The notes beneath the pieces were generated by a model. It searched no databases. It was not told the DNA's origin and was given only the letters and a program-made list of their open reading frames with translations. A program made the position numbers and the translations under genes. A DNA stretch of 64,000 bases. Source: Escherichia phage HY03. Where the stretch lies: the sequence record NC_031047.1; one strand, given 5' to 3'. This document shows, piece by piece, positions 1,966 through 3,436 of this stretch (positions within the stretch are counted from its first letter, which is position 1; the number at the start of each line of letters is the position of its first letter).

Positions 1966-2597
1966 ATGTGCCGCATGTTTATAAGTATAAACATCCTAAA
2001 ACTAAAAAGTGGTATATAGGAAGTCATGATGGTCACAACCCGAATTATGATGGTTCGGGTGTAGTTTGGCAACATGCTAAAAAGAAATATGGAATAAAAT
2101 CCTTTAATAAAGAAATATTATATGAAGGACCAATGTTTAGACAGGTTGAAGAAATTATTTTAACTTGTTTAGATGCTGCTAATTGTCCGGATTCATATAA
2201 TTTAAAGAATGAAGCATGGGGAGGAAGTTTTCCAGGCAAATTAAATGGAATGTACGGTAAAAAACTATCTCCAGAAGAAAGATATAAGTGCGGAAATGCC
2301 TTTCGTGGAATCAAGCGTCCTGATCATTCTAAAAGAATGAAAGGCGAAGGTAATCCAATGTATGGTAAAAATGAGCAGGCATATGGAATTATAAATCGAG
2401 CCAAGGAAAATTCTGGTAAAACTTATGAAGAAATTTTTGGCGTAGAAAAAGCTAAAATAATTAAAGAAACGATGTCTAAAAATCGTAAAGGAAAACCTCA
2501 TAATTTGATAGAAAAAATATGTCCGCATTGCGGACTAAAAGGACGTGGGCCAAATATGACAAGATACCATTTTGACAAATGTAAGGCACTTAAATGA
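1956..2597 (+). CDS. GIY-YIG (Seg-like) homing endonuclease with NUMOD3 repeats and C-terminal zinc finger
   Basis: VYKY...WYIGSH GIY-YIG variant, NGMYGKK / GNPMYGK NUMOD3-like repeats, CPHCG...HFDKC; overlaps gene 42 end and next gene start. Confidence 0.7.
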   Translation: MEVNVPHVYKYKHPKTKKWYIGSHDGHNPNYDGSGVVWQHAKKKYGIKSFNKEILYEGPMFRQVEEIILTCLDAANCPDSYNLKNEAWGGSFPGKLNGMYGKKLSPEERYKCGNAFRGIKRPDHSKRMKGEGNPMYGKNEQAYGIINRAKENSGKTYEEIFGVEKAKIIKETMSKNRKGKPHNLIEKICPHCGLKGRGPNMTRYHFDKCKALK

Positions 2598-3436
2598 TTC
2601 AATTCGTAATTCCAAGTTATCAGCGTGTAGGGGCAGTTTCTGCCCTTAATATGTTTCCGACTGATTATGAACCCCATATTGTAGTGCGTGAACACGAAGA
2701 AAAAGCTTATTATGATGCTTATGGGTCTAGAGCTAAAATTGTAACTATTCCTGATGATGTTAATGGAATTTCCGGTACTCGTAAAGCAATTACTGATATG
2801 TATGCAGGTCAACGAATCTGGATGATTGATGATGATACTACTATTCGTATGAGTTCAATACGAAAGAGAGACGATAAACGGCGCGTAGATAAAATTAATC
2901 AATTAACTCGTGAACAGTTCTATGAATTAATTCAATACGTTGAGGATGCTATGGATTGCGGGTATTATCACGGTCATGCTCGTCTACCAATTTTTAAAAT
3001 TACTTCATCTTGGGGTAATTATCGTGAAAACTCATATGGATTCACGAATACATGGTATGACCTCGGAAAACTTACGGCAGAACAAATTGGGTATGGAAAA
3101 ATTGATTTATGCGAAGATATGTATGCATTTCTCAATTTAATTAATCAAGGTTATCCGCATTTGGCCTTGTTCAAATATCTAGTTGTATCTGGAAAATCAC
3201 ACGCTCCCGGTGGGTGTAGTTCAATTCGTAGTAATTCTAAACATAATAGAGCGCTTGAGCAAATCAATAGAGAGTTTCCAGAGCAAGCTCGTTGGAAAAC
3301 TTCAAATATTGAAAAACGAAAATCGTTGGGTGAAGAAGACGAGCCATTAAAGGTTCTTCGCATGTGTGTTTCGCGTAAAGAAAAATCAGAAGCATTTCAT
3401 AAGTTTAATGCTATTCATCCAATAGCAGTTGATTAA
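2594..3436 (+). CDS. Putative DNA (hmC) glycosyltransferase, GT-A-like with DDD motif; not the T4 beta-gt sequence
   Basis: 280 aa; WMIDDDTTIR DxD-like motif; occupies the beta-gt slot between 42 and uvsX; family assignment is inference. Confidence 0.45.
   Translation: MIQFVIPSYQRVGAVSALNMFPTDYEPHIVVREHEEKAYYDAYGSRAKIVTIPDDVNGISGTRKAITDMYAGQRIWMIDDDTTIRMSSIRKRDDKRRVDKINQLTREQFYELIQYVEDAMDCGYYHGHARLPIFKITSSWGNYRENSYGFTNTWYDLGKLTAEQIGYGKIDLCEDMYAFLNLINQGYPHLALFKYLVVSGKSHAPGGCSSIRSNSKHNRALEQINREFPEQARWKTSNIEKRKSLGEEDEPLKVLRMCVSRKEKSEAFHKFNAIHPIAVD

Follow-up and report, generated by a model that had tools for sequence, protein, structure and literature searches.

A T2/T6-type glucosyltransferase as the very probable product of the gene in the beta-gt slot of Escherichia phage HY03

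Which sugar does Escherichia phage HY03 attach to the hydroxymethylcytosine (hmC) of its DNA, and by which enzyme? The question is raised by the slot that lies between gene 42 and uvsX: in T4 it is filled by beta-gt and segA, while the open reading frame (ORF) map of a 64,000-nucleotide (nt) stretch of HY03 (NC_031047.1; hereafter the window), set against the annotations of T2, T6 and T4, shows an ORF of 280 amino acids (aa) at 2594-3436 on the plus strand, with an ATG start and a TAA stop. The best explanation, which we hold with high confidence, is that this ORF encodes the T2/T6-type beta-glucosyl-HMC-alpha-glucosyltransferase (ba-gt), adding a second glucose to alpha-glucosyl-hmC. The identity, family membership, synteny, motif conservation and fold class behind this assignment come from the present analysis, and the reaction and the DNA composition come from the literature. 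The features on which the argument turns are as follows.

2594-3436, plus strand: ba-gt, also ggt or TAGT, the beta-glucosyl-HMC-alpha-glucosyltransferase gene, 280 aa (ORF, T2/T6 identity, PF20691, PHROG 842)
2594-2650, plus strand: first 19 codons of ba-gt (MIQFVIPSYQRVGAVSALN), part of the real protein (invariant residues, Pfam profile, model strand)
2828-2836, plus strand: DDD (D79-D81), presumed DxD motif binding metal and uridine diphosphate (UDP)-sugar (invariant in homologues, post-strand position)
1225-1965, plus strand: gene 42, dCMP hydroxymethylase, maker of the hmC precursor (Pfam Thymidylat_synt, 1.5e-14; 94.6% nt identity to the T4 gene 42 region)

Identity and fold of the encoded protein

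A first-pass annotation of the window had suggested a T2/T6-like sugar decoration and a homology search against the T2/T6 transferase, and the search bears the suggestion out: 268 of the 280 residues (96%) are the same as in the T2 ORF of the same slot, and 266 of 280 (95%) are shared with the ggt reading frame of T6, leaving 14 differences. Against Salmonella phage SG1 the HY03 protein shows one residue difference, and against Escherichia phage ELT1 it shows two; ELT1 is the nearest genome over the first 25 kb of the window (96.7%). Moreover, residues 3-207 align to positions 2-205 of the 205-position profile PF20691 (TET-associated glycosyltransferase, TAGT) with 40.2 bits, the gathering cut-off being 27.5 bits, and PHROG 842, named "beta-glucosyl-HMC-alpha-glucosyltransferase", was matched at 3e-87. 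The same synteny, with a TAGT gene where T4 has beta-gt, has been stated before (PMC13390438).

The DDD motif that had been noticed on first inspection lies at residues 79-81 in the context WMIDDDT and is unchanged in 10 homologues, the most distant of which have 27-31% identity. In the AlphaFold2 (AF2) model it directly follows the strand formed by residues 74-78. Such a post-strand position is where the DxD of GT-A enzymes sits. The predicted structure has a single Rossmann-like nucleotide-diphospho-sugar transferase fold with the DxD after the central strand, and together with the membership in PF20691 it supports the earlier proposal of a GT-A-type glycosyltransferase; the modelled fold of ba-gt is GT-A-like, whereas T4 beta-gt folds as GT-B. 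The DDD presumably coordinates a divalent metal and the diphosphate of the UDP-sugar, and we infer an inverting mechanism, given the fold class and the beta linkage of the product.

The full 280-aa form is taken to be the real ba-gt, since its first 19 residues hold the family-invariant IPSY.R positions: I6, P7, S8, Y9 and R11 do not vary in the family alignment, the match to the Pfam TAGT profile begins at residue 3, and the AF2 model has a predicted strand at residues 2-7. Nevertheless, Met20 is the annotated start in some records (ELT1; T6 MH550421). In T6 (MH550421, 3900-3990, minus strand), codon 10 of ggt is TAG (amber), where the window has CAG, which explains why T6 ggt is annotated from Met20 as a 261-aa protein; in ELT1 the Met20 start is annotated although codon 10 is not a stop.

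Two side observations concern this N-terminal part of the gene. In T2 (AP018813, 4001-4843), residue 11 is histidine, every other aligned homologue having Arg11, a change that might bear on the low gentiobiosylation reported for T2 (~5%, as compared to 72% in T6; PMC6024577). A GC-rich hairpin (2628-2648, plus strand; stem of 9 pairs including 5 G-C pairs, TTT loop) lies within codons 12-18, just 5' of the internal Met20 ATG at 2651, and in Yersinia phage fPS-2 a "terminator" feature is annotated inside the region matching ba-gt.

Predicted DNA modification and alternative readings

The T2/T6 enzyme extends an already alpha-glucosylated cytosine to a gentiobiosyl base (PMC13216743), the linkage being beta-1,6 and the gentiobiosylated fraction of hmC 72% in T6 and 5% in T2 (PMC6024577). 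Applied to HY03, gene 42 would make hydroxymethyl-dCMP and the polymerase would put hmC into the phage DNA, whereupon an alpha-glucosyltransferase of the phage, encoded outside the window, would attach an alpha-linked glucose to hmC; ba-gt would then take UDP-glucose and join a second glucose via a beta-1,6 linkage to the first, giving gentiobiosyl-hmC. HY03 DNA is predicted to carry hmC, alpha-glucosyl-hmC and alpha-gentiobiosyl-hmC, without beta-glucosyl-hmC. Nucleoside mass spectrometry, which the first-pass annotation had named as a check, has already been published for close relatives, with the outcome that it had predicted. The composition of ten newly isolated Tequatrovirus phages with alpha-GT and TAGT but without beta-GT was determined by high-performance liquid chromatography and mass spectrometry (HPLC/MS), and comprised hmC, alpha-glucosyl-hmC and alpha-gentiobiosyl-hmC (~40-67%), with no beta-glucosyl-hmC (PMC13390438). 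One of these ten phages, EH2 (OZ034684.1), has a full-length match to the window gene at 94.2% identity. By analogy with the described enzymes, the earlier wording, in which hmC itself was decorated, can be refined, in that the acceptor would be the alpha-glucosyl-hmC supplied by alpha-gt (PMC13216743, PMC6024577, PMC13390438). The contrast with T4 would therefore consist of the absence of beta-glucosyl-hmC plus a disaccharide at the alpha-glucosylated sites. A gentiobiosyl, T6-like assignment is useful for the annotation of HY03 and for host-range prediction.

Several points weigh against this assignment. No alpha-gt homologue was found in the 64-kb window by tblastn, a miss that is to be expected because the window begins ~1.2 kb upstream of gene 42; ELT1, SG1 and T6 carry alpha-gt in the interval from gene 55 to gene 47, at a distance of ~12 kb upstream from gene 42, and by analogy with these relatives we infer that alpha-gt of HY03 itself is placed beyond the left edge of the window. 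The extent of diglucosylation is not predictable from sequence, as T2 and T6 reach ~5% and ~72%, respectively, with nearly identical enzymes (PMC6024577), and the activity assigned to the T2/T6 enzyme is taken here from secondary citations. Furthermore, the AF2 model is of low confidence at residues 126-140, at residues 195-210 and at the C-terminus, and when solved structures were searched by sequence for the ba-gt family, only chance matches came up (E > 1).

On another reading, HY03 carries the known ba-gt in a weakly active, T2-like state, with mostly alpha-monoglucosyl-hmC and a few percent of gentiobiosyl-hmC. The T2 gene is 96% identical, yet ~5% gentiobiosylation has been reported for T2 as compared to 72% for T6 (PMC6024577, PMC13390438). 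However, the HY03 protein retains the family-invariant R11 that is H in T2 (AP018813), the SG1 and ELT1 alleles are only 1-2 residues away, and 40-67% gentiobiosyl-hmC was found in 10/10 measured Tequatrovirus isolates (PMC13390438). We consider weak activity unlikely.

It could also be argued that ba-gt acts on hmC directly and replaces T4 beta-gt, giving a single beta-linked sugar, glucose or another. The gene occupies the beta-gt slot, and other TAGT members are taken to glycosylate hmC-type bases directly, as the family name implies. On the other hand, beta-glucosyl-hmC was absent by HPLC/MS in phages with ba-gt and without beta-gt (PMC13390438), and the T2/T6 literature gives alpha-glucosyl-hmC as the acceptor (PMC13216743, PMC6024577), which makes direct action highly improbable.

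T4 beta-gt had been given in the first-pass annotation as a protein of about 351 aa; it has 351 aa and starts with MKIAIINMGNNV, as stated there, and the description of the 280-aa protein as unrelated to it also stood. That the ORF is a T4 beta-gt homologue diverged past recognition has next to no probability: the common genomic position, and nothing else, speaks for it, and it is refuted by BLASTP against T4 beta-gt (best E = 4.2), by tblastn with T4 beta-gt, which found no match across the whole window, and by the predicted GT-A-like fold, as compared to GT-B for T4 beta-gt (PMC13216743).

Distribution among phages

The T2/T6-type assignment agrees in name with many of the database matches, which are annotated as beta-glucosyl-HMC-alpha-glucosyltransferase. 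The gene ba-gt is present in 477 phage records, 473 of which match near full length at 94-99.5% nt identity, and since it is held by so many records the 280-aa ORF is no chance ORF. Its carriers are Tequatrovirus phages of Escherichia, Shigella, Yersinia, Salmonella, Citrobacter and Serratia, T2 included. A T4-type beta-gt was found in 29 phage records, chiefly T4 and its immediate relatives. The majority state of Tequatrovirus is thus ba-gt (477 vs 29 records), and the textbook arrangement of T4 is the minority. Which host defences a T-even phage evades or sets off depends on the kind of sugar that its hmC bears; such defences include type IV restriction (GmrSD/BrxU), the Brig1 glycosylase and CRISPR-Cas (PMC13216743, PMC13390438). 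Gene, position, fold class and product have all been described already; this is the T2/T6 enzyme in its usual place, an ordinary finding, and its identification adds nothing new to the biology.

Neighbouring genes and homing endonucleases

Upstream of ba-gt, the gene order is imm (820-1071), gene 42, and a 213-aa ORF, and ba-gt is followed by uvsX (from 3514), gene 40 and gene 41. The 213-aa ORF is the following feature.

1956-2597, plus strand: seg-like GIY-YIG homing endonuclease ORF, 213 aa (PHROG 314, 2e-31), overlapping gene 42 and ba-gt by a few bases

Its product shares 37% identity over 111 aa with T4 SegA. Comparison of the region showed that the corresponding insert (1962-2591, 630 bp) is missing from T2, SG1 and T4; it was found in 76 phage records, with at least 99% identity in 69 of the 76, and this near-identity of almost all copies suggests a recent spread of the insert. 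A second GIY-YIG gene (4487-5209) lies within uvsX, and ba-gt is flanked by two homing endonuclease genes. Double-strand-break repair started by such endonucleases in mixed infections could co-convert ba-gt and so actively favour its spread to the detriment of the T4 beta-gt allele, a scenario that we regard as quite improbable; if true, it might help explain the 477 ba-gt records as compared to the 29 of beta-gt.

The uvsX gene itself, encoding a RecA-like recombinase (3514-5999, plus strand), is fractured into two ORFs, with a split intein and an endonuclease gene between the halves.

3514-4152, plus strand: uvsX N-extein
4153-4440, plus strand: N-intein, 96 aa, Cys first
4487-5209, plus strand: free-standing GIY-YIG/NUMOD3 homing endonuclease gene
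5352-5456, plus strand: C-intein, 35 aa, ending in VTHN and starting a new ORF at 5352
5457-5996, plus strand: uvsX C-extein, Thr first

The predicted trans-spliced UvsX would have 393 aa, with the junction TVMTGG/TGVMYSAD (the slash marking the splice point) being the same as in the intact UvsX of T2. The 1.3-kb insert is not in T2, SG1 or T4, and the fractured arrangement is shared by 23 phage records spread over several Straboviridae genera. Arrangements of this "fractured gene" type have been described in marine metagenomes (PMC2677866); our literature search found no publication on a fractured uvsX, and according to a 2024 paper inteins had not been reported in coliphages (PMC11162368). 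The N-terminal part of uvsX (3526-4152, plus strand) has 76% nt identity to T4, the flanking genes having 94-98%. Since T4 SegA has been reported to cut within uvsX (PMC2988022), this low identity may represent divergence at a homing endonuclease target.

A search of the whole window against Rfam at gathering thresholds gave 0 matches, and no group I introns or riboswitches were recognised. In the region 900-5500, promoter-like sites were not above those in shuffled sequence, and terminator-like sites were in slight excess (5 vs 2.3 +/- 1.6 expected). As these counts are near expectation, we draw no inference on transcription units.

Comparison with known systems

Compared to the ba-gt of T2 and T6, the HY03 gene has the same length (280 aa), the same slot between gene 42 and uvsX, the DDD and the N-terminal IPSY.R. 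Its protein has 12 substitutions when set against T2 and departs from T6 at 14 positions; S60 of the HY03 protein was not seen in T2, T6, SG1 or ELT1. Gene 42 and ba-gt overlap directly in T2 and SG1, whereas in HY03 they are split by the homing endonuclease gene. With the TAGT family of PF20691 the protein shares a whole-profile match above the gathering score and a GT-A-like predicted fold, and because the score is modest (40 bits) the T-even branch appears to be a divergent member. The two differ in the partner that provides the hydroxymethyl base, which is a thymidylate-synthase-like dCMP hydroxymethylase here and a TET/JBP dioxygenase in the TAGT family, and according to the literature the T-even branch takes as its acceptor a sugar that the base already bears. 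With T4 beta-gt (GT-B, PDB 1JG7), HY03 ba-gt has the slot in common, as well as, going by the literature, the UDP-glucose donor and a beta-linked product. In contrast, the two proteins have no sequence similarity, belong to different fold classes and differ in length (280 vs 351 aa), and the acceptor is hmC itself for T4 beta-gt and alpha-glucosyl-hmC for ba-gt.
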